A stretch of DNA of 32,803 bases from a virus (taxonomy: Duplodnaviria > Heunggongvirae > Uroviricota > Caudoviricetes). Shown here in pieces: positions 1,843-32,803 of the stretch. The position numbers and the translations under genes are program-made. The notes under the pieces were generated by a model. That model was not told the origin of the DNA, did no database searches, and saw nothing but the letters and a program-made list of their open reading frames with translations. The DNA is taken from the IMG/VR virus record IMGVR_UViG_2617270990_000007, one strand, 5' to 3'. Position 1 is the first letter of the stretch, and the number at the start of each line of letters is the position of its first letter.

Positions 1843-2892
1843 GTGCGGGTATTACTTCGACCTGTTCTGGTACCGGAACTCGGGCTGGTGGTCGTTAAGC
1901 CGGGCCGTGAATCCATGCCGGTATTCCACAATACCCGGGTACTGGTGGAGCCGGAACCGAAAAGCATGCGTAATCTGCCGTCCGGGGTCGTTCCTGCCGT
2001 TCGCCAGCCGCTGGTGGAAGACAAAACATTGCTGCCGTTTTTCAGTAACGCACGGGTAATTCGTGCTGCTGGTGGTGCTGGTGCATTGTCTGACTGGCTG
2101 TTGCGCCATATTAAATCCTGCCAGTGGCCACACGGCGATTATCATCACAGCGAAACCGTTATTCACCGTTATGGTACCGGCGCAATGGTGTTGTGCTGGC
2201 ACTGCGACAACCAGCTGCGTGACCAGACATCCGAATCACTCGAGCAACTTGCTCATCAAAACCTGTCAGCATGGATGATTGACGTCATCGGTCACGCAAT
2301 AAGCGGTACGCAGGAGCGTGAATTATCTCTGGCTGAATTATCCTGGTGGGCGGTCCGCAATCAGGTGGCGGACGCGCTACCGGAAGTGGTATTACGTCGC
2401 TCGCTGGGATTACCAGCGGAAAAAAACTGCTCGGTGTACCGCGAAAGCGACATCGTACCGGGAGAGCAGACCGCCACCAGCATATTGAAACAGCGCACAA
2501 AAAATCTTGCACCGTTGCCTCACGCCCACCAGCAACAAAACCCATCACAGGAAAAGACGGTGGTAAGCATCACCGTTGATCCAGAGTCTCCGGAATCTTT
2601 CATGAAGCTGCCTAAACGTCACCGTTGGGTTAAGGAGAAATACACACGCTGGGTTAAGACACAGCCGTGTGCTTGCTGCGGTATGCCAGCCGACGATCCG
2701 CATCATCTGATTGGTCACGGGCAGGGCGGAATGGGAACCAAAGCACATGATCTCTTTGTGTTGCCTTTGTGCAGAAAGCATCACGACGAGTTGCATACGG
2801 ATACCGTGGCATTTGAAGAGAAGTATGGCTCCCAACTGGAGCTGATTTTTCGATTTATCGATCGCGCGCTGGCAATTGGTGTGCTGGCCTAA
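1843..2892 (+). CDS. YdfU/DUF968-like prophage protein with C-terminal Cys/His cluster
   Basis: 349-aa ORF (GTG start); C-terminal CACCG…HH…GHGQGG…CRKHHDELH resembles the Qin-prophage YdfU family from memory. Confidence 0.55.
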
Positions 2893-2894
2893 TT

Positions 2895-3287
2895 TTGTGG
2901 AGTAAGTTGATGCGTGATATTCAGATGGTTCTTGAGCGTTGGGGGGCATGGGCGGCTAATAATCATGAAGATGTGACCTGGTCGTCCATTGCCGCCGGTT
3001 TTAAGGGATTAATTCCTTCAAAAGTAAGATCTCGTCCGCAATGCTGTGACGATGACGCGATGATCATTTGTGAATGTATGGCTCGCCTGAAAAAAAACAA
3101 CAGCGATTTACATGATTTATTGGTGGACTATTATGTCGGCGGCATGACTTTTATGGCGCTTGCACGTAAGCATGGGCGATCTGATTGTTGGGTTGGCAGG
3201 ATGCTCCAGAAAGCTGAGGGCGTAGTGGAGGGCATGCTGATGGTGTTGGATCTCCGATTGGAGATGGATGCTGATTGTTCGAAATAA
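2895..3287 (+). CDS. late-gene antiterminator Q (phage 82 / QuuD type)
   Basis: Translation …[39 protein letters not shown]…[11 protein letters not shown]…[10 protein letters not shown]… matches the ~127-aa Q antiterminator family; true start probably the internal ATG giving MRDIQMV. Confidence 0.7.
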
Positions 3288-3299
3288 TTAAAGGAAAAG

Positions 3300-3328
3300 T
3301 TGCTGTCTGATTTTCATTAGTCTAACAT
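3300..3328 (+). promoter_or_regulatory. candidate pR'-like late promoter (TTGCTG - 17 nt - TAACAT)
   Basis: -35/-10-like hexamers with 17-nt spacing, 13 bp downstream of the Q stop; position matches lambdoid pR'. Confidence 0.35.
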
Positions 3329-3377
3329 TTTAAATGTTGGAATCGCAACGTAGTTATTATCATATAACAGCTTGTTT

Positions 3378-3405
3378 CCTGATTTAGCCAGCCTCCCCAA
3401 AGGCT
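3378..3405 (+). terminator. intrinsic terminator, candidate tR' (target of Q antitermination)
   Basis: Stem CCAGCC / GGCTGG with 8-nt loop followed by a T7 run, about 50 nt downstream of the putative pR'. Confidence 0.55.
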
Positions 3406-3442
3406 GGTTTTTTTCTAATAAGTATCATTTCGGGTGGGGATT

Positions 3443-3967
3443 TTATTGTTTAACCCATAATAGTTCATTGACATTGAATCCCAACTTTTGAGCGGTACGC
3501 ACATAGTCTGCTTTTACATTATCTGGAATAGTTTGGGTCCTTGCCAGAATCCATAGGTATTCTCTGTTCGGACCACTGACAAGAGCATACTTATACTCAT
3601 CATCCAGTTTGATTACATTATAGCCACCATAGAAGGGGCCAAAAAACGAAACTTTCAACGCTGCAGTTTTAGTATCTCCAGTAAAGTATGCTTTACCTTC
3701 GCTCTCGCTCCATTTGTTTTTCGTTGGATCGTATCCACGGTTAAGTACGCGAATCCCTCCGTCGTTCCGTTTTTCATAAGTAGCGCTGACCTGTTCCAGA
3801 CCACGTTCGAACCAGTTCTCGAGGCGAGCTATTTCATACCATTTTCCGAGGTAGCGGTTGGCGTCAAAATTTGTAATCGGCTGCACACCTTTAGGTGGTG
3901 TCGGGGCCTTACATGCTATAAGAGTGAAAGAGAGTGCAATGCCAGTCAACACAGGCCATAACTTCAT
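3443..3967 (-). CDS. lipocalin-family outer-membrane lipoprotein (Blc-like)
   Basis: 174 aa; lipoprotein signal with lipobox LIAC; strong similarity by eye to E. coli Blc (…NFDANRYLGKWYEIARL…FERGLE…KVSFFGPFYGGYNVI…YLWILART…). Confidence 0.8.
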   Translation of the reverse strand: MKLWPVLTGIALSFTLIACKAPTPPKGVQPITNFDANRYLGKWYEIARLENWFERGLEQVSATYEKRNDGGIRVLNRGYDPTKNKWSESEGKAYFTGDTKTAALKVSFFGPFYGGYNVIKLDDEYKYALVSGPNREYLWILARTQTIPDNVKADYVRTAQKLGFNVNELLWVKQ

Positions 3968-4159
3968 AATAAATCCTGTACTTTTGATAGTTGAGAGTAA
4001 GTATGAAAGATAGATGAGTACGACCGATCACTTAAAGAACTTTCCTACTATATTAGGAATAGTCAATAACAGAAAAATTGTCAGTGATGAAGCCAGAAAG
4101 GCAATTTAGTCCGTGCACTACAAAGTTTATGTGTTAATGAATTAGTCAAGGGGGAGGAA

Positions 4160-5119
4160 ATGATAAAAAAACCTGTGATTGGGATCAGCGGTTGTTTGGG
4201 CGGTTCTGCTGTTCGTTTTGATGGTGGTCACAAAAGAGATGACTTTTTAATGGACAAATTAGTGGAATGGGTAACATTCAGACCAGTATGTCCGGAAATG
4301 GCTATAGGGCTGCCAGTTCCGCGTCCTGCTCTACGACTTGTGCGCTCGAAGCAAGGAAATATACGGATGTGTTTCAGCCACGACCAGAATGAGGATGTGA
4401 CAGAGAGAATGACAGAGTTTAGTCGTTCTTATATGGACAAATTAAAGGATGTATCGGGGTTTGTGGTTTGTGCTAAATCTCCCAGCTGTGGCATGGAGCG
4501 CGTGCGTGTCTATGATGAAAATGGTAATCGAGGTCGTAAAGATGGAGTGGGACTATTTACGAGCACTTTGATGGAAAAGTTTTCCTGGCTACCGGTTGAA
4601 GAGGATGGGCGATTACATGATCCAGTGCTTCGTGAGAATTTTATTGAAAGAGTTTTTGCTTTGCATGAGCTCAATCACCTTTACAAGGAGAAATTATCAA
4701 GAAGAGAGTTATTAGCTTTTCATAGTCGTTATAAGCTTCAGTTGTTGGCGCATAGCCAGGCAGGCTATAAAGATATGGGACCATTTGTGGCTGCAATACA
4801 CGAGTGGGCGGACCTTGAATCATACTTTGAGGTGTATCGTGATAATCTGATGGCGATTCTCAGAAAACCAGCATCACGTAAAAATCACACGAATGTGCTG
4901 ATGCATATACAGGGGTATTTTAGTAATTACTTAAGTACACGCCAGCGTAAAGAGTTGAGCGAGGTTATACTTAACTATCGCTTTGGCACATTGCCTCTTC
5001 TTGCGCCGTTGACTCTGCTGAAGCATTATCTGGGTGAGTATCCTAATGATTACTTGCTTACACAGAATTACTTCGATCCCTATCCGGAAGAACTGGCTCT
5101 AAGACTGATGGTGAATTAA
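4160..5119 (+). CDS. DUF523/DUF1722 fusion protein (TudS/YbgA-like)
   Basis: 319-aa ORF with SD GGGGGAGG upstream; N-terminal Cys-containing region and C-terminal YbgA-like region recognised from memory only. Confidence 0.55.
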   Translation: MIKKPVIGISGCLGGSAVRFDGGHKRDDFLMDKLVEWVTFRPVCPEMAIGLPVPRPALRLVRSKQGNIRMCFSHDQNEDVTERMTEFSRSYMDKLKDVSGFVVCAKSPSCGMERVRVYDENGNRGRKDGVGLFTSTLMEKFSWLPVEEDGRLHDPVLRENFIERVFALHELNHLYKEKLSRRELLAFHSRYKLQLLAHSQAGYKDMGPFVAAIHEWADLESYFEVYRDNLMAILRKPASRKNHTNVLMHIQGYFSNYLSTRQRKELSEVILNYRFGTLPLLAPLTLLKHYLGEYPNDYLLTQNYFDPYPEELALRLMVN

Positions 5120-5516
5120 CTGTATGCGATATCATCTGAAAGTGATGAGTTCCTGTATGCAGGATATTTACAATCGTAAAAACTACGCTATGATGCTCAT
5201 AGTGTCAGTTTTTATAAAAATCCTGTTCACGCTAAAGAAAACATTGAGATGCAATTTAATGTTGGTAAACATACCAGCCCCAAAAGATTTTATTCAATCT
5301 GTTTTTATATGAAGATATTTCAAGTGAATATAAAGAGCATATAATATTATTATTGCACGCAGCTATTATAATATAACAGATTAGTTTAATGATTTGTTTT
5401 TTGTGAGTTAAACACATGGTTTTATAGTTGTGATGCAATGAGATTTTCCTTATTGTTGAACTGGCGAATATTGATTTTCCACCTATACTTACCTGGTGTA
5501 ACCCCAATGATATCAG

Positions 5517-6239
5517 GTGGATAATATGCCATACATATGTTCTATCATTTTGGTGTTGAACTCGTTTGGTGTCCGAATTGGTAAAGAAGATATTTTGTTT
5601 AAAAAAGGAAATGCTGTCCTCATTGAATACAATTTAAAAGATCTTTTTTCGTCAAATACAGATCATCTAATGATCGTAGATATTGAGGAGAAAACAGTTA
5701 ATGATTTCTTTAAAAACTACACACTCTCACCTTTTTCTGTAAGAAGGTTTTATCCGTCATACTTGATAGTAGAATGTGAAGATTTTTCATTGTTAAGGAA
5801 CTTGGTTGCATGCTTGAATTGTGATAGCAAAACCGTGGATGTAGTTAGAAATCAAATATCACTTGCATGTCTTGCTGTCTTATCTTCAGAGAAAATAGTG
5901 CAAAGTTTTTTGTTCGGAAGTCTTAATAGCTTAGGTTGTAAAGTTAAGGCTATTATTCACTCGGATATCTCAGCGTCATGGAGACTTTGTGATATATCTT
6001 CAAGATTATATATGAGCGAGAGTTTGTTAAAAAGAAAATTAAAAGACGAAGGATTATCGTTTAGTAAATTAATTCTTGAAGAACGAATGATGATGGCGCA
6101 AAGATTATTGATCTACAGTAACCATACTGTCGGCAAGGTGGCGGGAATATGCGGGTATGACAATGCATCATATTTTGTAAGTGTTTTTAGAGGATATTTT
6201 GGTGTGCCTCCGCACCAATATTTATCAAGATTTTCTTAG
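5517..6239 (+). CDS. AraC/XylS-family transcriptional regulator
   Basis: 240 aa, very AT-rich; C-terminal AraC-type HTH signature (…ASYFVSVFRGYFGVPPHQY…). Confidence 0.75.
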   Translation: MDNMPYICSIILVLNSFGVRIGKEDILFKKGNAVLIEYNLKDLFSSNTDHLMIVDIEEKTVNDFFKNYTLSPFSVRRFYPSYLIVECEDFSLLRNLVACLNCDSKTVDVVRNQISLACLAVLSSEKIVQSFLFGSLNSLGCKVKAIIHSDISASWRLCDISSRLYMSESLLKRKLKDEGLSFSKLILEERMMMAQRLLIYSNHTVGKVAGICGYDNASYFVSVFRGYFGVPPHQYLSRFS

Positions 6240-6429
6240 AAGATATGATGTGATGGCATTTTATAAAGTTATTTTTTGAAGTGTAAGATTATACGATATT
6301 TTTAGCTACGCCAGAATAATTGCTGGCGTTTTTCTTTTTGAATAGATGTTCGGGCCTTACGCTAATGTAACTTCTTTCCTTCTTCGAACCAAACCGTGTA
6401 CACCATCCGTTATCTGCGGAGGTGAGGCT

Positions 6430-6645
6430 ATGAAATCCATGGATAAGTTAACAACGGGCATCGCCTACAGCACCTCTGCAGGCAGTGCTGGCTACTGGTT
6501 TTTACAGTTGCTCGATAAAGTCACGCCCTCACAGTGGGCGGCAATAGGTGTATTGGGTAGTCTGGTATTTGGCATGCTGACGTATCTGACAAACCTTTAT
6601 TTCAAGATTAAAGAAGACAGGCGTAAGGTTGCGAGAAGAGAGTAA
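6430..6645 (+). CDS. lambdoid holin (EssD/S-like)
   Basis: 71 aa from ATG at 6430 ([31 protein letters not shown]…), SD GGAGGTGAGG upstream; closely resembles DLP12 EssD. Confidence 0.8.
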
Positions 6646-6649
6646 TCCA

Positions 6650-7201
6650 ATGACTCAAGACTATGAACTGGTTGTGAAAGGAGTTCGCAATTTTGAGAAT
6701 AAAGTGGCGGTAACTGTAGCCTTACGGGACAAAAAACACTTTGACGGTGAAATTTTTGACCTGGACATCTCGCTGGACCGTGTTGAAGGTGCCGCGCTGG
6801 AGTTTTATGAGGCAGCAGCCAGAAGGAGCATCAGACAGGTCTTCCTGGATGTTGCTGCCGGGTTATGTGAAGGGGATGAGCAGTCGCCGGAAAAGCGCCC
6901 CATAATTTTAGAGGCGCAGAATGTGTGGATAACCTACAAAGGAAAGCTACCGGGAAGAATTACTGGTTCTCTGAAGACGCCACCGACGGCATTGCGGTCA
7001 GAAAAAGATGATATTGAATCGCCCATTGAAAAACTGGAGGGCAGCGTCGCTGATCTGAATAAAAAATTGTCGGTGCTGATTCCTTCTGAAGATGAAAAAA
7101 AACGCCGCGATGAGCAGTTTGCGGCGTTTTACGATTATTGCATTGAAGTTACTCGCAGGAATTTTGTGAAGATTTTTGAGGAGGGTAAATCTCTTCAGTA
7201 A
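6650..7201 (+). CDS. hypothetical protein (183 aa) within the lysis cassette
   Basis: ORF between holin and endolysin; start taken at the ATG giving MTQDYELVVKG; no recognised motif. Confidence 0.45.
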   Translation: MTQDYELVVKGVRNFENKVAVTVALRDKKHFDGEIFDLDISLDRVEGAALEFYEAAARRSIRQVFLDVAAGLCEGDEQSPEKRPIILEAQNVWITYKGKLPGRITGSLKTPPTALRSEKDDIESPIEKLEGSVADLNKKLSVLIPSEDEKKRRDEQFAAFYDYCIEVTRRNFVKIFEEGKSLQ

Positions 7202-7409
7202 GCTTATTGGCGGACGCTGCAATTAATTCAGGAAGGTCCGCAAGGTCATCTGTCAGTGGATATGATGAAAAATCGGCGGCAGTTCTGTTAAGAAGCGCTT
7301 TAACTAATTCCTTTTCCTTCTCCGGCAACAAGTTGATTAGAGCTACGACTGCTTGCCTGAGTGCGATTAAATCAGCAAAAGTTTGTTTAGGTAGATTTGT
7401 GTAATCCAT
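7149..7409 (-). CDS. hypothetical small protein (86 aa), antisense to the lysis cassette
   Basis: ORF with AGAGG SD-like sequence about 6 nt upstream of its ATG; overlaps the 3' end of the preceding gene. Confidence 0.3.
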   Translation of the reverse strand: MDYTNLPKQTFADLIALRQAVVALINLLPEKEKELVKALLNRTAADFSSYPLTDDLADLPELIAASANKLTEEIYPPQKSSQNSCE

Positions 7410-7522
7410 AGTCGCCTCTGTGTTTATCAGATTGACATCCTCCTCCCGCCAGTGCCCATCACTGGTGAGGTAAGATTTAACATATCCGGGGATTTGAAGC
7501 CGATAAATCCTGATAAATATCC

Positions 7523-8550
<1,028 letters not shown>

Positions 8551-8910
8551 ATTAATATTAAATCGGATTATTTTTAGCGCTGAATGTGAAATTTAAATAA
8601 AAAGGACTCTTCCATGAGTCAAAATCCTTGAAATCTTAAGGGTAAGATAAAAGGTCATTAGACAGAATGACACGTTTTATTAATAAATAAAGCTATTGTT
8701 TCATTCGTGTGTTTTTCTTTACAAAAGTAATCCTTGCTATGGTTGGTTAATCATGCGTTAATGGTGTTCTGGTTTGTTACAAAATTATCTGAAGCAGTCA
8801 TTGTTATAATTTTATTATTTGTACCTCTTGAGATTTCCTTGTTGGTTTTTCTCTCTGATATTTTTTTTCGGACCATTCTGCCCAAGGGCTAACTTCTTCA
8901 AAAGGTAATA

Positions 8911-9126
8911 ATGATGTCTAACAAAATGACTGGTTTAGTGAAATGGTTTAACCCTGAAAAAGGTTTTGGTTTCATCACGCCGAAAGATGGTAGCAAAGAT
9001 GTGTTTGTCCATTTCTCAGCTATTCAGAGCAACGATTTCAAAACGTTAACTGAGAATCAGGAAGTCGAATTTGGTATTGAGAACGGACCTAAAGGCCCCG
9101 CGGCTGTTCATGTTGTGGCACTTTGA
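8911..9126 (+). CDS. cold-shock protein (CspA family, CspB/CspI-like)
   Basis: [13 protein letters not shown]…KGFGFI…[10 protein letters not shown]… canonical cold-shock domain; long AT-rich 5' leader upstream. Confidence 0.9.
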
Positions 9127-9325
9127 GGTAGAAAATATTACAAACCATATTCACTTTAGATGCCCGTGTTGCCATGGTTCTCAGTATAGAACATCATCTT
9201 TTGATGTTTCTGACAGGAATCCTTTCGGGGCAAAATGTATCTTTTGTAAATCAATGATGATTACATTTGATAATATTTCACAATACTTAAATGTTAGCCG
9301 TCTATCGTTAGATTTAAGAAAGTGA
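9109..9325 (+). CDS. hypothetical Cys-rich small protein (about 72 aa)
   Basis: ORF from ATG at 9109 overlapping the csp stop; CPCC…CIFC spacing suggests a zinc-ribbon. Confidence 0.3.
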
Positions 9326-9369
9326 AAATGAAGGCTCCATCGGGGGCGTTGGTAGCCCTTTGATATACG

Positions 9370-9458
9370 GGCTTTCAGCGGTGTAATGCGGGTTTGAGCA
9401 CCACATAAAGCCACTGAAAGCCGCTATAAATCACCCGAGTGTGGACACTGTGTGGACG
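9370..9458. other. candidate attL of the P2-like prophage (core region plus Int arm-type direct repeats)
   Basis: Two direct repeats GTGTGGAC (9439..9446, 9450..9457) at the int 3' end resemble the P2 Int arm-site consensus as I recall it; 11-bp inverted repeat GGCTTTCAGCG / CACTGAAAGCC (9370..9380, 9412..9422) just outside int. Confidence 0.4.
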
Positions 9459-10444
9459 TTTTCGGGTTCAATGCCGCCCTTTAACGGATTGAGTGTTACG
9501 GCATCTTGTAAATACTCTGGCGCGAAGTGCGCGTAGACCATTGTCTGCTCTATGCGCGCGTGACCGAGTATCCTTTGTAGCGTGATAATGCTTCCTCCGT
9601 TAATCATGAAATGCGTAGCAAAACTGTGCCGTAGAGCATGGGTTGCCTGTCCTGCTGGCAGGTCGGGCTTTACCTCTTTCAGTACCTGCCGGAACAACGT
9701 GTAATCGGCATTCGGGAACAGGAAGCCGCGCTTCACGCTGGTGAGTATTTCACATACTTCTGCCGATACTGGCACCGTTCGGGGTTTGTTCGTTTTGGTT
9801 TTAACAAACGTCACCCGATTATGGATGATGTGCTCGGCTTTCAGTTTTGCCGCTTCACCCCACCTAGCGCCCGTGCTTAGGCAAAGAACCGCTATTTTTT
9901 TATTGTCACCATCGAGCCGCGAGAAAAGGGCGGTAATTTCCTCGTTGGTTAAATAGCCCGTTTCGGGCTTCTCCTCTTTGAGTCGTTTACGTCCTCTTAT
10001 CGGGTGTTCGCCATGGTATAGCTCGGCCTCAATCAGAGCGGTAAACATTCCGCTGATGCATGTCAGATCCCGATTGATGGTAGATGGCTTAACGCCTTCA
10101 CCTCGCCGAGCTGCAACATACTGGCTAATTACCGTCTTTGTAATCTGAAACGCGCACGGATCACCGGTTATCGCCGCGAATTTCTCGACCTTTCCCCGAT
10201 TGTACTTTCCCCATTCCTCGTGCTTTGCCTTGAGTTCCCACCAGATTTGAATCAATTCGGAAAGTTGCCTTTTATCGGTCGGCTTCGCTAACCAATCCTT
10301 GTTGTGGTGGTTGTATTGCGTGTGCTTCTCAAAGGCCACTGCCTCACTTTTCTTGTCAAACTTCCTGCGGATGCGTTTTCCGTTGCGTCCGCTAGGTCTA
10401 ATGTCCACTTCATAACGACCATCATCGAGTTTCTTAATTGTCAT
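9431..10444 (-). CDS. int: P2-like tyrosine integrase
   Basis: 337 aa; C-terminal catalytic region with R…HALRHSFATH…LGH…Y motif typical of tyrosine recombinases; adjacent to C and cox in P2 order. Confidence 0.9.
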   Translation of the reverse strand: MTIKKLDDGRYEVDIRPSGRNGKRIRRKFDKKSEAVAFEKHTQYNHHNKDWLAKPTDKRQLSELIQIWWELKAKHEEWGKYNRGKVEKFAAITGDPCAFQITKTVISQYVAARRGEGVKPSTINRDLTCISGMFTALIEAELYHGEHPIRGRKRLKEEKPETGYLTNEEITALFSRLDGDNKKIAVLCLSTGARWGEAAKLKAEHIIHNRVTFVKTKTNKPRTVPVSAEVCEILTSVKRGFLFPNADYTLFRQVLKEVKPDLPAGQATHALRHSFATHFMINGGSIITLQRILGHARIEQTMVYAHFAPEYLQDAVTLNPLKGGIEPENVHTVSTLG

Positions 10445-13644: not shown

Positions 13645-16224
13645 ATGTCTTCATTTCGCCGCTCTCATAGCATGACCAACATGCCGGGAGGCTCTATCGA
13701 GCCAGCCCGGTATGCTTACGCCTGGAATGAGCCAAAAGCCGCCATCTTCGTTGATAAGGCTCCCGCTGTTGATCTATATGAATTGGGTCAAGAGCAGGAG
13801 TTTTTCGCCTGGGTTGAAAATCCCCTCAAGCCGTTGCCTATCTTCATTCGCCGCCGCATTGCCTCTTACATAAATACCGTTCACGAGGATAAAGGGCGCC
13901 ATATCGCAAAACTGAAGTTGCGCGACATCGTTAAGCGCGAGCTTCCACACGTCAGAAACGTCACGAAACAATACGCTGTGCCAGAAGACAATGAGTGGAT
14001 CATTTTCTCTGAACTAAACCCACTGTTTCACTCGTTTGAAAATCTGCGTGAACTTGTCCGCCGCTTTAATAATCTGGCGGATTGCACGGATGAAGATATT
14101 GATTTGCTGGCTCAGGACATAGCCATTTATGCCAATGCTGTTTTGGCTGAAGTGAGCGAGGGTGCAAGTGTGTTCAACGATACTGAATACACCAAACGCA
14201 TGCTGCGTGAAGGCTCCAGGCTGATTGCGTATTTCAGGTTAGTGCCGCCCTGGGCGAAGAAGCGCCGGATGGCGCTTGATGAAGCGACAGCAGCAATACA
14301 AAAAACCCTTCATGATCGCTTTTGGTCACGCCTCCTGCGCAAGTACGCCCGCCGCTGGCGCGAGCATTTGCACATTGCCTATGGTGACGTGCGCCGCGAT
14401 GTTTCACCGTATTGCAGCAAACACCACGTTACGCAGTGGGATTCACGCCGTAAGCGTAGCCGCGCAATTATGAGCCGCCTTGAACTTGAAGATCAGGTAA
14501 CTGGTGAGCGCATTTCGCTGATAGAGCAGATTGATAAGAGCATTTCTAATCCTGAAAAGCGCCGTGTTGAGTTGATGACGCGCATTGGTGGATTTGAGAA
14601 GGTGGCAACGGAAAGCGGGTTTGCCGGCAGTTTCTTCACCCTGACCGCGCCGTCTAAATATCATGCCTTTACAGCGTTCGGGCATCGTAACCGCAAATGG
14701 AACGGAGCCAGCCCCCGCAAGACACAAAACTACCTTAATCGCGTCTGGCAACTGATCCGCGCGGAGCTTGCGCGCCGTGAGATTTCTGTTTTTGGCCTTC
14801 GTGTTGCAGAGTCTCACCATGATGGTACTCCGCATTGGCATGGCCTTCTGTTCACAGCCCCAGAGCATACCGGCGAATTGCTGGAAGTGATGGAAGACTA
14901 CGCCACGCGTGAAGATGCTGATGAACTCACCGGCAAGAATGGCAAACAGCCCCGCTTTGAACTTAAGCCGATAGATCCGGCTTTGGGGAGCGCTACTGGA
15001 TATGTCGTTAAGTACATATCTAAAAACATCGACGGTTATGCACTGGATGGTGAAAGCGACGACGAAAGCGGACGCCCACTGAAGGAGACAGCAAAACACG
15101 CTACTGCCTGGGCTTCATGCTGGGGCATTCGTCAGTTTCAGTTTCTGGGTGGCGCGCCGGTGTCCGTCTGGCGTGAGTTACGCCGCCTGAAGAATCAGGA
15201 AATGGCAGATCGAATCAGTCCGGTTTTCGGTGAGTTACACCGCGCCGCCCATGCCGGGAACTGGCAGGACTACATCACCTTGCAGGGTGGTCCGTTCGTG
15301 ACACGGAATAGGCTTGTGTTGCGCGCCTGGTATCAATATCGGGATGAGCCGAGCAGTTACGGCGAGTTTCAGAGGGTTATTAAAGGGGTGGTCATGCCAG
15401 CATCGACCGTTCCTCCGGTTGAAACCCGCCTCCATTCTTATCGCATTGTCAAAAAGAAGCCAAAAGCAGACGACGCCGCCGATCGAGGTTTTGACCTTAA
15501 GGGCGCGCCCGCGCCCTCTTGGACTCGTGTCAATAACTGTACTGAGTACAAAAAACATACAAATCAAGGGGCGGTAAATCCACCGCCTGAAGATCCAGAA
15601 CAATATGAAATTGGTCAAATGAGCCGAGAGCAGAAAAAACGGCTTAATGAGAGCATCAGAAATTACAAACCAAAACAGCAAAAATCACCTGCTGATGTGT
15701 TTGAGTCGCTTGCCAATGCTATTGCCGCTTCAGATTGCGATAGCGCAGATCAGGAGCGCGCTGAAAATTACATGAAAGTGGCGGCGGCTATCCGCGATGA
15801 ATCAGCAACCCGGCGGAGCAGTGTTGTGGAGGCCACACCAATGACTGCTCACCTTCGCTATCAGCTTTCCTCTTGGGGAATTAAGTCCAAGCCTGATATT
15901 GATGCCCTTCGTCGCGGGGCTTTGCTTTCTTTTGATGATCGACATGTTTATCTGAAGGATGGCTATCTGGTAGAAAAGACCAAAGCAATTTACTGTAGGG
16001 CTAGAGATTGTAATGCGGAGTTAAATCAGGATGATATAACCTATGGCGATGAAAAGCTCTGCTTGGCTTGTACTATGAAGCTGAAGGGGGTAGAAGTAGT
16101 CGAACAGCGCCGCGATGAAGTTAAGCAGAGAGTTAAAGCGGAAAGGAAGCGGGAGAATGATGTACTCCTTGAAAGATTAAGGGTTGCGCTCATTAATGGG
16201 GGGAAGCGTGGGCAAGTACTTTGA
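13645..16224 (+). CDS. A: P2-family replication initiation protein A (rolling-circle endonuclease)
   Basis: 859 aa; central block …FFTLTAPSKYH…HHDGTPHWHGLLF…GYVVKYISKNIDG… matches the P2 gpA family (conserved Tyr/His motifs). Confidence 0.9.
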   Translation: MSSFRRSHSMTNMPGGSIEPARYAYAWNEPKAAIFVDKAPAVDLYELGQEQEFFAWVENPLKPLPIFIRRRIASYINTVHEDKGRHIAKLKLRDIVKRELPHVRNVTKQYAVPEDNEWIIFSELNPLFHSFENLRELVRRFNNLADCTDEDIDLLAQDIAIYANAVLAEVSEGASVFNDTEYTKRMLREGSRLIAYFRLVPPWAKKRRMALDEATAAIQKTLHDRFWSRLLRKYARRWREHLHIAYGDVRRDVSPYCSKHHVTQWDSRRKRSRAIMSRLELEDQVTGERISLIEQIDKSISNPEKRRVELMTRIGGFEKVATESGFAGSFFTLTAPSKYHAFTAFGHRNRKWNGASPRKTQNYLNRVWQLIRAELARREISVFGLRVAESHHDGTPHWHGLLFTAPEHTGELLEVMEDYATREDADELTGKNGKQPRFELKPIDPALGSATGYVVKYISKNIDGYALDGESDDESGRPLKETAKHATAWASCWGIRQFQFLGGAPVSVWRELRRLKNQEMADRISPVFGELHRAAHAGNWQDYITLQGGPFVTRNRLVLRAWYQYRDEPSSYGEFQRVIKGVVMPASTVPPVETRLHSYRIVKKKPKADDAADRGFDLKGAPAPSWTRVNNCTEYKKHTNQGAVNPPPEDPEQYEIGQMSREQKKRLNESIRNYKPKQQKSPADVFESLANAIAASDCDSADQERAENYMKVAAAIRDESATRRSSVVEATPMTAHLRYQLSSWGIKSKPDIDALRRGALLSFDDRHVYLKDGYLVEKTKAIYCRARDCNAELNQDDITYGDEKLCLACTMKLKGVEVVEQRRDEVKQRVKAERKRENDVLLERLRVALINGGKRGQVL

Positions 16225-31498: not shown

Positions 31499-31540
31499 TG
31501 AACCGCCCCGGGTTTCCTGGAGAGTGTTTTATCTGTGAAC

Positions 31541-32431
31541 TCAGGCTGCCAGATCATCGTTTCCGATGGAAGCATAATAAGCTTTTTCTGCTTCTGCCGG
31601 AGGAGTATGGCCCAGCCTTCCCAGCAATCGTCGATTGTTATACCAGTCCACCCACGTTAGTGTGGCCAGTTCCACTTCTGCACGGTTTTTCCAGCTCTTA
31701 CGGTGTATTACCTCCGCTTTGTAAAGACCATTGATGCTCTCAGCCATCGCGTTGTCATACGAGTCGCCTGTACTCCCTGTTGATGCCAGTAATCCGGCTT
31801 CTTTTAGTCGCTCCGTATAGGCCAGTGACACATACTGAGAGCCTTTATCGCTGTGATGGATGGTGCCAGACGGACGACGGGCCCACAACGCCTGCTCCAG
31901 CGCATCCAGCACGAATGTCGTTTCCATAGACGATGAGACCCGCCACCCCACGATGTATCCGGCAAACACATCAATGATAAACGCCACATAGACGAAGCCC
32001 TGCCATGTGCTGACGTAAGTAAAATCAGCCACCCACAGCTGGTCAGGTCGTTCTGCCACGAACTGACGGTTTACGCGGTCGCCTGCGGCAACGGCTTTCC
32101 GGCTGATGGTCGTACGGACCTTTTTACCCCGGAGAACACCGGCAAGTCCCATAACCGCCATGAGACGTGCCACTGTACATCTGGCCACCCTGATTCCTTC
32201 CCGTAACAACTGACGCCAGACTTTACGCACACCGTACACCTGATGATTTTCATCGTATACGCGCTGTATCTCTCTCTTCAGCCAGTCGTCGTGCTGCGCA
32301 CGGGCACTGCGTTTATCCGGATGATGTCGCTGTTGCTGACAATGGTAATACGTTGACGGGGCAATATGCAGTTCGCTGCATACCGGTCCGACCCCGTACT
32401 GCTCACGCAGCTTATCCAGCAGTGGCATCAT
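31541..32431 (-). CDS. IS3-family transposase OrfB (copy 2)
   Basis: Translation identical to ORF 24..914. Confidence 0.9.
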
Positions 32432-32754
32432 TTTTTCCAGAGGCGGTCGAACTCCGCCTTCGCAAAATAAGCGGAAGCCTGGCGAAGGATATCGTTACTG
32501 CGGCGCAGTTCACGATTTTCACGTTCCAGCTCTTTCAGACGCTGACGTTCAGCGCTGGTGAGCCCACCATCACCGCCCCCGGTATCCCGCTCATGCTGGC
32601 GAACCCAGACACGCAGAGTCTCCGGCGTACAGCCAATCTTTGGGGCAATGGAACAAATTGCCGCCCACTGTGAGTCATATTCATCCTGACTTTCCAGAAC
32701 CATACGAATCGCCCGCTGACGGACTTCGGGGGAAAAACGAGTATTTTTAGTCAT
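32428..32754 (-). CDS. IS3-family transposase OrfA (copy 2)
   Basis: Translation identical to ORF 911..1237. Confidence 0.9.
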
Positions 32755-32803
32755 CCTGTTTACCTCTTTCTCAGGGAGTTTAGTCTCCAGGATTTCCGGG
32801 GCG

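Follow-up and report, generated by a model that had tools for sequence, protein, structure and literature searches.

What do genes lodged between the Q antiterminator and the holin of a lambdoid prophage do, and do they serve the phage or its host? The question is raised by a 32,803-nucleotide stretch of Caudoviricetes DNA (IMG/VR record IMGVR_UViG_2617270990_000007; here called the window), in which 3 intact genes, coding for a Blc-like lipocalin, a DUF523/DUF1722 protein and an AraC-family regulator, occupy a cargo slot at 3288-6429, with a QuuD/Q21-type antiterminator on the left and a class II holin on the right. We put a probability of about 0.7 on the reading that they form, between Q and holin of a Qin-like lambdoid prophage, a lysogenic-conversion cargo made of 2 parts (morons). 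Its first part would be a divergent blc/rudS pair taken from an enterobacterial chromosome, with the MerR/MlrA-type regulator left behind, and its second part an independent, AT-rich module of promoter, araC and terminator.

The cargo interval and its occurrence

The genes of the interval, its 2 borders and the gene to their left are the following.

1843-2892, ydfU (DUF968), from the list of open reading frames (ORFs) and a Pfam scan
2895/2910-3287, plus strand, Q antiterminator of the QuuD/Q21 type, left border (PF06530 at 8e-51; phrog_79)
3443-3967, minus strand, blc-like lipocalin gene (PF08212)
4160-5119, plus strand, rudS (TudS/DUF523 and DUF1722; PF04463, PF08349)
5517/5526-6239, plus strand, AraC-family regulator gene (HTH_18/HTH_AraC; 237 amino acids from 5526)
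6430-6645, plus strand, class II (P21-type) holin gene essQ, right border (PF04971; RefSeq essQ in strain 127)

The longest ORF of the holin opens at 6346; a strong Shine-Dalgarno sequence and the RefSeq essQ annotation of strain 127 put the start at 6430, and the cargo interval is therefore taken to be 3288-6429. Its guanine-cytosine (GC) content is 38.3%, against 49% in the whole window, 52.0% in ydfU-Q and 47.3% in the lysis genes; by part, it is 43.8% in blc, 43.2% in rudS, 33.5% in araC and 31-37% in the intergenic spacers. A sequence-only reading made before this analysis had placed 3 genes at these positions, with the lipocalin on the opposite strand and an AT-rich araC, and the ORFs and the Pfam scan agree with it. 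Its description of the genes as non-phage-like does not hold in the database sense, since each cargo protein aligns end to end with a PHROG family.

Many E. coli chromosomes show the order Q-blc-rudS-araC-holin with 100% identity. Among 5,426 complete E. coli genomes, 952 cover at least 80% of the 3.9-kb Q-to-holin stretch; blc-rudS alone is covered to that extent in 1,047 of the 5,426 (~19%; any match in 1,151) and is found at several chromosomal positions. E. coli strain 127 has the identical cassette at the Qin site, in a prophage flanked by rspB and ydfJ. We also identified the cassette in 12 deposited lambdoid phage genomes, including Jouyvirus 1H12 and its relatives and IdasGreatGrand, and in further prophages. 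Because this gene order recurs both in many E. coli chromosomes and in 1H12 and IdasGreatGrand, deposited as phage genomes, the Q-to-holin genes are genuine phage cargo and not chance neighbors. The earlier proposal that the Q-S interval is a cargo position is borne out by the same genes between Q and holin in deposited phages and in ~950-1,050 complete E. coli genomes, and comparison of related Q-S intervals gave the same cargo in 1H12 and IdasGreatGrand and araC homologues alone in other prophages. The cargo is real but largely ordinary, as all 3 genes come from families already described and many E. coli carry the package. No description of the composite cassette, of a chromosomal origin of blc/rudS or of the prevalence of the cassette in E. 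coli was found in the literature searched.

The Q protein has a distant match to the solved Q21 structure (6P18/6JNX; E 5e-9), and its gene is 85% identical in nucleotides to quuD of DLP12, with homology stopping near window position 3269. The same slot, with a promoter-like region and a terminator right after Q, holds stx in Stx phages, nmpC in DLP12 and cspB/cspF in K-12 Qin; nmpC, the first cargo gene behind the nearest Q allele, also lies on the opposite strand. The window differs from these other cargoes in gene content and in that its slot appears to hold 2 independently acquired modules.

The blc/rudS pair

The RudS protein of the window has 319 amino acids, with PF04463 over residues 7-149 (5.8e-40) and PF08349 over residues 192-309 (9.4e-40). 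Its DUF523 domain is the TudS desulfidase fold (PF04463; PDB 6Z92), and the fusion of TudS with DUF1722 defines RudS, a tRNA 4-thiouridine (s4U) "eraser" described in 2024 (Jamontas et al., PMC11417400). The protein is 91.9% identical in amino acids to gp66 of phage 1H12, which is the RudS_vir assayed in that study (PMC11417400). It retains Cys12, Cys44 and Cys110, the [4Fe-4S] ligands, together with Glu46, Arg55, Ser107 and Ser109; RudS_vir and RudS_ST list the same cysteine positions, 12/44/110 (PMC11417400, Table 1), and, from a constant offset, the other 4 residues would correspond to Glu51, Arg60, Ser111 and Ser113 of RudS_KT. By its domains and residues, the DUF523/DUF1722 gene is thus assigned to RudS, a predicted tRNA s4U desulfidase. 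The sequence-only reading had the 2 domains right and missed this identity, for which a phage orthologue had already been assayed.

Every RudS assayed cut tRNA s4U on overexpression in E. coli, 4.7- to 26-fold across the set, and overexpression reduced the growth delay caused by ultraviolet A (UVA) (PMC11417400). Lowering of s4U in vivo is demonstrated for RudS_vir and, by analogy with this close relative, would be expected of the window allele. The 2 proteins share the gene, cassette and slot, the TudS and DUF1722 domains, the 3 cysteines and the catalytic Glu, Arg and Ser residues; they differ in that the window allele sits in a defective chromosomal prophage, whereas RudS_vir is carried by a free phage. 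Chromosomal RudS proteins lie in MerR/LitR-controlled light-response loci, whereas the window rudS comes without that regulator. E. coli is said to be without RudS both in the RudS paper (PMC11417400) and in a 2026 review; this holds for K-12, not for about one-fifth of the complete E. coli genomes.

BL21(DE3), the expression host of the RudS study (PMC11417400), carries a remnant of the cassette (L082, NZ_CP053602.1, 4468-7057): Q, the lipocalin gene and the first 49 codons of rudS are kept beside IS3, and araC and the lysis genes are gone. We also considered orf319/orf242 of Salmonella pathogenicity island 2 as the same RudS and AraC pair and rejected it: the Salmonella AraC match is AdiY at the adi locus, and the placing of ORF319 under a MerR-type regulator in the RudS paper (PMC11417400) also speaks against such a pair.

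The lipocalin has 174 amino acids and matches PF08212 (Lipocalin_2) at 7.5e-43, the NCBIfam model "outer membrane lipoprotein Blc" at 312.6 bits, above its cut-off of 267, and the E. coli Blc structures 3MBT/1QWD at E 1e-65 to 1e-67. Its signal peptide, MKLWPVLTGIALSFTLIAC19-K20, ends in the lipobox L-I-A-C19, followed by Lys at +2. A Lys rather than an Asp in this place leads, by the Lol +2 rule, to outer-membrane sorting. Because the lipobox Cys19 is followed by Lys, not Asp, the protein is predicted to be an outer-membrane lipoprotein. It shares with E. coli Blc the Lipocalin_2 fold, the lipobox, the length and a score above the Blc cut-off; it differs as a phage-borne paralogue, ~60% identical by eye in the HMMER alignment, and is nearer to lipocalins of Enterobacter and Leclercia (75-80%) than to E. 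coli Blc.

We surveyed 64 loci coding for a RudS relative, with 1 genome taken per species. The relatives are mostly chromosomal and 66-76% identical, in Citrobacter, Enterobacter, Leclercia, Kluyvera, Klebsiella, Pectobacterium and others. A divergent Blc homologue (68-80% identical) lies upstream of rudS in 42 of the 64 loci, arranged as in the phage, and in 36 of those 42 a MerR/MlrA-like regulator gene and a transthyretin-like gene stand between blc and rudS. The 2 genes are directly adjacent, as in the phage, in 2 Citrobacter species; one more locus with this adjacency (L068) is a fragment of the cassette, 97% identical, from a short contig of a metagenome bin. The chromosomal blc/rudS copies have a GC content of 57-60%, against 43-44% in the phage copies. 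This synteny indicates that the phage pair is a captured, AT-shifted copy of an enterobacterial block (Enterobacter, Leclercia, Citrobacter) that has lost its own regulator. The MerR regulators near rudS have been linked to light-inducible expression by the RudS authors (PMC11417400). The divergent spacer of the phage pair, 3968-4159 (34% GC), presumably holds both the blc and the rudS promoters; it is conserved among phage variants and could not be aligned with the spacer of Citrobacter sedlakii. As a moron, the pair shows deviant composition and insertion between phage genes only.

The chromosomal four-gene block of blc, the MerR/MlrA-like gene, the transthyretin-like gene (HIUase family) and rudS is itself conserved in Enterobacter and Leclercia species (e.g., L032, Enterobacter cloacae, 3021-5960), and its logic is apparently unstudied, save for the remark on a nearby MerR regulator in the RudS paper.

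The araC module

Homologues of the window araC, 60% (L076) and 50% (L077) identical, sit alone between Q and holin in other prophages, behind Q proteins of other families, PF03589 and PF06323. A terminator hairpin and holin leader are common to the window, 1H12, IdasGreatGrand and both of these homologues, the distant L077 included. The gene is flanked by 2 candidate signals.

5461-5491, plus strand, candidate araC promoter CTGGCG-N17-cTATACTTa, with a sigma-S-like extended -10
6308-6340, plus strand, intrinsic terminator closing araC, ~90 nucleotides ahead of the holin start

Upstream of their genes, patE (Sakai Sp1), L077 and L076 all have the conserved motif TTGGCA-18-TATACTT. Because promoter motif, terminator, deviant GC content and independent occurrence come together, araC, with its candidate promoter, gene and terminator, appears to be a self-contained moron and fits the classical definition. 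Selection was estimated as the ratio of nonsynonymous to synonymous divergence (dN/dS) between the window and 2 diverged phage alleles.

Q, dN/dS 0.04-0.08
blc, dN/dS 0.10-0.23
rudS, dN/dS 0.14-0.24
araC, dN/dS 0.21

Q and all 3 cargo genes are under purifying selection. Synonymous divergence in araC (0.33-0.59) is about twice that in its neighbors (0.05-0.29); this higher divergence and the different GC content (33.5% vs 43-44%) are consistent with a separate history of araC. Taken with the survey of loci, the comparisons point to a mosaic of 2 independently acquired modules, the blc/rudS pair and the araC moron.

The AraC protein has a C-terminal double helix-turn-helix (HTH_18 at 3.1e-16, HTH_AraC at 6.1e-11). 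Its identities to named regulators are as follows.

Sakai ECs_0287 (PatE by position), 47%, without gaps over 237/237 residues
PsrA (ecs1087, full ORF), 38%
GadW, 34%
AppY, 30%
YdeO, 28%
AdiY, 25%
GadX, 24%

ECs_0287 is probably PatE, being the only AraC gene of Sp1 at thrW, where Sp1 is the counterpart of CP-933H, the home of patE; ecs1087 is PsrA according to a review. The first recognition helix is near-invariant across the clade, and SESLLKRKLK is near-identical in the window AraC, PatE and PsrA. The best NCBIfam match, YdeO, aligns to residues 1-231 at 112 bits, below its cut-off of 348, and GadX scores 90 against 500. Because the protein falls below every NCBIfam equivalog cut-off, we classify it, on these alignments, as a new paralogue that is the orthologue of no named regulator and as a predicted member of the GadW/YdeO/AppY/PatE/Psr clade of the AraC/XylS family. 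The AlphaFold model (predicted local distance difference test score of 85) shows the architecture of ToxT/Rns/CsvR, and its fit to the GadX DNA-binding domain has a template modeling (TM) score of 0.86-0.89 and a root-mean-square deviation of 1.2-1.5 Å; for the model as a whole, the TM score is ~0.45, since the domain orientation differs, and the model confirms the fold class only.

PatE and PsrA/B are prophage AraC regulators that, according to reviews, activate gadE/hdeAB and repress the enterocyte effacement locus (LEE) in enterohemorrhagic E. coli (EHEC), and AppY, a prophage gene of DLP12, directly activates gadE (review). The window AraC resembles PatE, PsrA and PsrB in length, gap-free full-length alignment, recognition helices and carriage by a lambdoid prophage. 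It further shares the promoter TTGGCA-N18-TATACTT with PatE and a place just downstream of Q with PsrA: psrA lies shortly downstream of Q in Sakai Sp4, and that Q is 79% identical to the window Q. It differs from PatE and PsrA in that identity is only 47% and 38% and the window gene occurs mostly in non-EHEC strains without the LEE. AppY, GadW, YdeO, GadX and AdiY belong to the same AraC subfamily at 24-34% identity, but the protein stays below the cut-off of each; appY, moreover, lies at the prophage end in DLP12, not in the Q-S slot. The earlier suggestion that an AraC-type regulator brought by a prophage could rewire host gene expression has a direct precedent in the gadE/hdeA activation and LEE repression of PatE and PsrA, and activation of gadE/hdeAB and acid resistance by the window AraC may be proposed on the same footing.

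The deposited start of psrA (ECs_1087; L009, Sakai Sp4, 13678-14391), annotated with 195 amino acids, is probably too short, as an upstream in-frame ATG gives a 237-amino-acid ORF that aligns end to end with the window AraC and PatE.

Transcription signals and a direct repeat

Further candidate signals were identified after Q and in the spacer ahead of araC.

3259-3288, plus strand, candidate late promoter PR', pair 1, TGGAGA-18-AATAAT, from a consensus scan
3300-3328, plus strand, candidate PR', pair 2, TTGCTG-17-TAACAT, read from the sequence
3348-3373, plus strand, copy 1 of a Q-proximal element, ACGTAGTTATTATCATATAACAGCTT, between Q and the first terminator
3386-3416, plus strand, tR'-like intrinsic terminator with a 9-bp GC-rich stem, a 6-nucleotide loop and T7, from a terminator scan
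5167-5205, plus strand, strictly conserved island in the rudS-araC spacer, with a promoter-like TTTACA-16-TATGAT that overlaps a weak hairpin and T-run, a possible rudS terminator and/or distal promoter
5357-5382, plus strand, copy 2 of the Q-proximal element, ACGCAGCTATTATAATATAACAGATT, upstream of araC and preceded by a perfect TATAAT at 5340-5345

The 84 nucleotides at 3335-3418 fold at -24 kcal/mol (z = -3.7 vs shuffles). The promoter-terminator block after Q is conserved in all cassette variants, including 1H12 and IdasGreatGrand, and a promoter and a terminator are equally placed in L077 behind its unrelated Q. We tried to pin PR' by comparison downstream of the Q genes of DLP12 and Sakai Sp4 and rejected the attempt, which returned only the core ATATAACAG..GTTT and no convincing -35/-10. 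A Q-specific late promoter just ahead of the holin was also considered and is held less likely: it is argued against by the araC-holin spacer, which is shared with a phage of a different Q family. Since this spacer is shared across Q families, a Q-specific late promoter is likelier beside Q than beside the holin; the cargo would then belong to the late transcription unit, in the manner of stx. Q-dependent transcription of the cargo in the late operon is thus plausible; to judge by the signals found, expression of araC and blc from signals of their own in the lysogen seems at least as likely.

The 2 copies of the 26-nucleotide direct repeat are 85% identical, with 0 matches expected by chance, and its core also occurs ~70 nucleotides past quuD in DLP12. 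Copy 2 is absent from the 1H12-type cassette, and the repeat was not found near araC homologues behind other Q families. The simplest reading is that the repeat is a Q-type-linked site and copy 2 a scar from a time when araC directly followed Q, before blc-rudS was inserted; copy 2 is possibly a second functional, Q-related site. The element itself may be a Q-loading, Q-utilization or pause element.

Proposed mechanism and alternative explanations

In the lysogen, the cargo genes would be driven by their own promoters. RudS, as a [4Fe-4S] desulfidase, would convert 4-thiouridine at tRNA position 8 to uridine, which should lessen near-UV tRNA cross-linking and growth delay. The AraC protein would most likely bind AT-rich promoters in the acid-fitness island (gadE, hdeAB), which would connect the prophage to the acid-resistance circuit of the host, probably in stationary phase. 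Once the prophage is induced, RNA polymerase modified by Q would pass across the entire cargo, in antisense over blc and in sense over rudS and araC, and on to the lysis genes, a step suggested by the promoter-like region and strong terminator directly after Q.

Several results weigh against this account. RudS_vir, although well expressed, ranked with the weaker RudS proteins (PMC11417400), and at 47% identity the target specificity of the window AraC may differ from that of PatE. The promoter scan of the shared spacer 3968-4159 returned no strong sigma-70 consensus for rudS or blc. Neither PR' candidate matches the consensus strongly, with TTGCTG-17-TAACAT below the scan's own threshold. The blc-rudS and araC modules are nearly always found together in E. 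coli, so that a functional link is possible.

The cargo might instead serve the phage, with rudS and araC switched on essentially only by Q read-through after induction and s4U stripped so that UV-induced cells can translate the late proteins. Lambdoid prophages are UV-inducible, the cargo has upstream of it a promoter-like region and a tR'-like terminator whose strand is that of rudS and araC, and rudS has neither a sigma-70 promoter in the scan nor its MerR-type regulator. The reduction of the UVA growth delay on RudS overexpression (PMC11417400) points the same way. Set against this are the conserved promoter motif and terminator that araC has for itself, the opposite strand of blc, which late transcription would read in antisense, and a cassette kept intact under purifying selection in defective prophages, such as this IS3-truncated one, that are incapable of lytic growth; we consider a purely phage-serving cargo unlikely. 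The narrower scenario, in which the phage after solar or UV induction uses Q-driven RudS to strip host tRNA s4U and keep translation running, we hold to be rather doubtful. The near-constant linkage of the 3 genes in E. coli, and the absence of the chromosomal regulator from the phage copy, would also fit a single three-gene regulatory unit in which AraC has replaced the lost MerR/MlrA type as local regulator of blc and rudS. We regard this as quite improbable, given araC homologues alone in the same slot elsewhere, blc/rudS without araC in 42 chromosomal loci, the differences of araC in GC content and synonymous divergence, and nearest characterized relatives that act on distant host loci.

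That the genes are functionless, decaying remnants in a dead prophage draws on the defective state of the prophage (IS3 upstream, no head or tail genes of its own in the window) and on BL21(DE3), in which a deletion associated with IS3 has removed araC entirely and rudS for the most part; with intact ORFs, retained catalytic residues, dN/dS of 0.1-0.24 across diverged alleles and the same genes in deposited complete phage genomes, decay is very unlikely. Defense genes are frequent in prophage accessory slots, and exclusion of phages is the work of other outer-membrane lipoproteins from lambdoid phages (Cor, Llp), so a role in anti-phage defense or superinfection exclusion was considered, for example a lipoprotein that blocks a receptor or tRNA editing that counters phage. 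No PADLOC model matches any cargo protein, and all 3 have better-supported family assignments, which leaves a defense role highly improbable. The idea that ordinary chromosomal genes lie beside phage genes by chance can point to the 68-80% homologues of blc and rudS in ordinary loci of other Enterobacteriaceae. It is contradicted by the position of the genes between Q and holin in prophages at several sites and in packaged phage genomes, and by the end-to-end PHROG matches; the homology search did not reduce the genes to chromosomal neighbors, and we give chance next to no credence.

Prophage context and neighboring genes

The lambdoid part of the window is a Qin-like remnant, truncated upstream by IS3, and a P2-like prophage comes after cspI; the lambdoid prophage is defective, with no head or tail genes of its own in the window. 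Two IS3 copies, at 1-1286 and 31518-32803, in the same orientation and 100% identical over 1,286 bp, enclose nearly the whole window. They bracket the Qin-like remnant and the P2-like prophage and are a pair on which deletion, inversion or composite-transposon-like movement can act; in many other genomes, the cassette is itself interrupted by IS3, IS1 or IS2. The P2-like prophage (9431-~31500) starts with a tyrosine integrase gene at 9431-10444 on the minus strand, followed by replication, capsid and baseplate genes. This stretch reaches at least 80% coverage in no complete E. coli genome, the best being 64% coverage at 95.5% identity.

Past the holin come a DUF1327/YdfR gene, genes for a lysozyme and for an Rz-like protein, and a cold-shock gene. 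The DUF1327/YdfR ORF (6629-7201, plus strand) has 190 amino acids, and the copy in strain 127 is annotated as a truncated pseudogene; its end is overlapped by a convergent 86-amino-acid ORF (7149-7409, minus strand), and neither of the 2 fits a defense model. A cspA-type thermoregulator 5' leader was identified full-length at 8756-9172 on the plus strand (Rfam RF01766, 109.8 bits vs a gathering score of 78), spanning the cspI-like cold-shock gene at 8911-9126, another accessory gene just past the lysis cassette. The Rfam scan of 2800-9500 (E<=1) returned only this thermoregulator and a sub-threshold terminator-like match at 3373-3416. In strain 127, the prophage carries a pseudogene of QueH, an epoxyqueuosine reductase, upstream of ydfU (pseudogene at L001, 18528-18965), a second tRNA-modification gene of the lineage; it is not in the window, where homology with strain 127 begins only at 1752.

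Significance

These findings on the cargo leave current concepts unchanged, and the locus shows clearly how a cargo slot is filled by the stacking of independent modules. With this AraC gene, prophage regulators of the PatE/Psr family reach past EHEC into commensal and environmental E. coli, and the gene is a possible route for a common prophage to tune acid resistance. Variation among strains in the amount of tRNA s4U and in the delay of growth under UVA could be a prophage trait. If the doubtful scenario of RudS use on UV induction is true, the same gene would, in lysogens, set about 1 in 5 E. coli strains apart from K-12 in their near-UV response, against the textbook view that E. coli has no RudS; tolerance of the envelope and of acid would come from the lipocalin and the PatE-like regulator beside it, making the cargo a three-way environmental-stress package.

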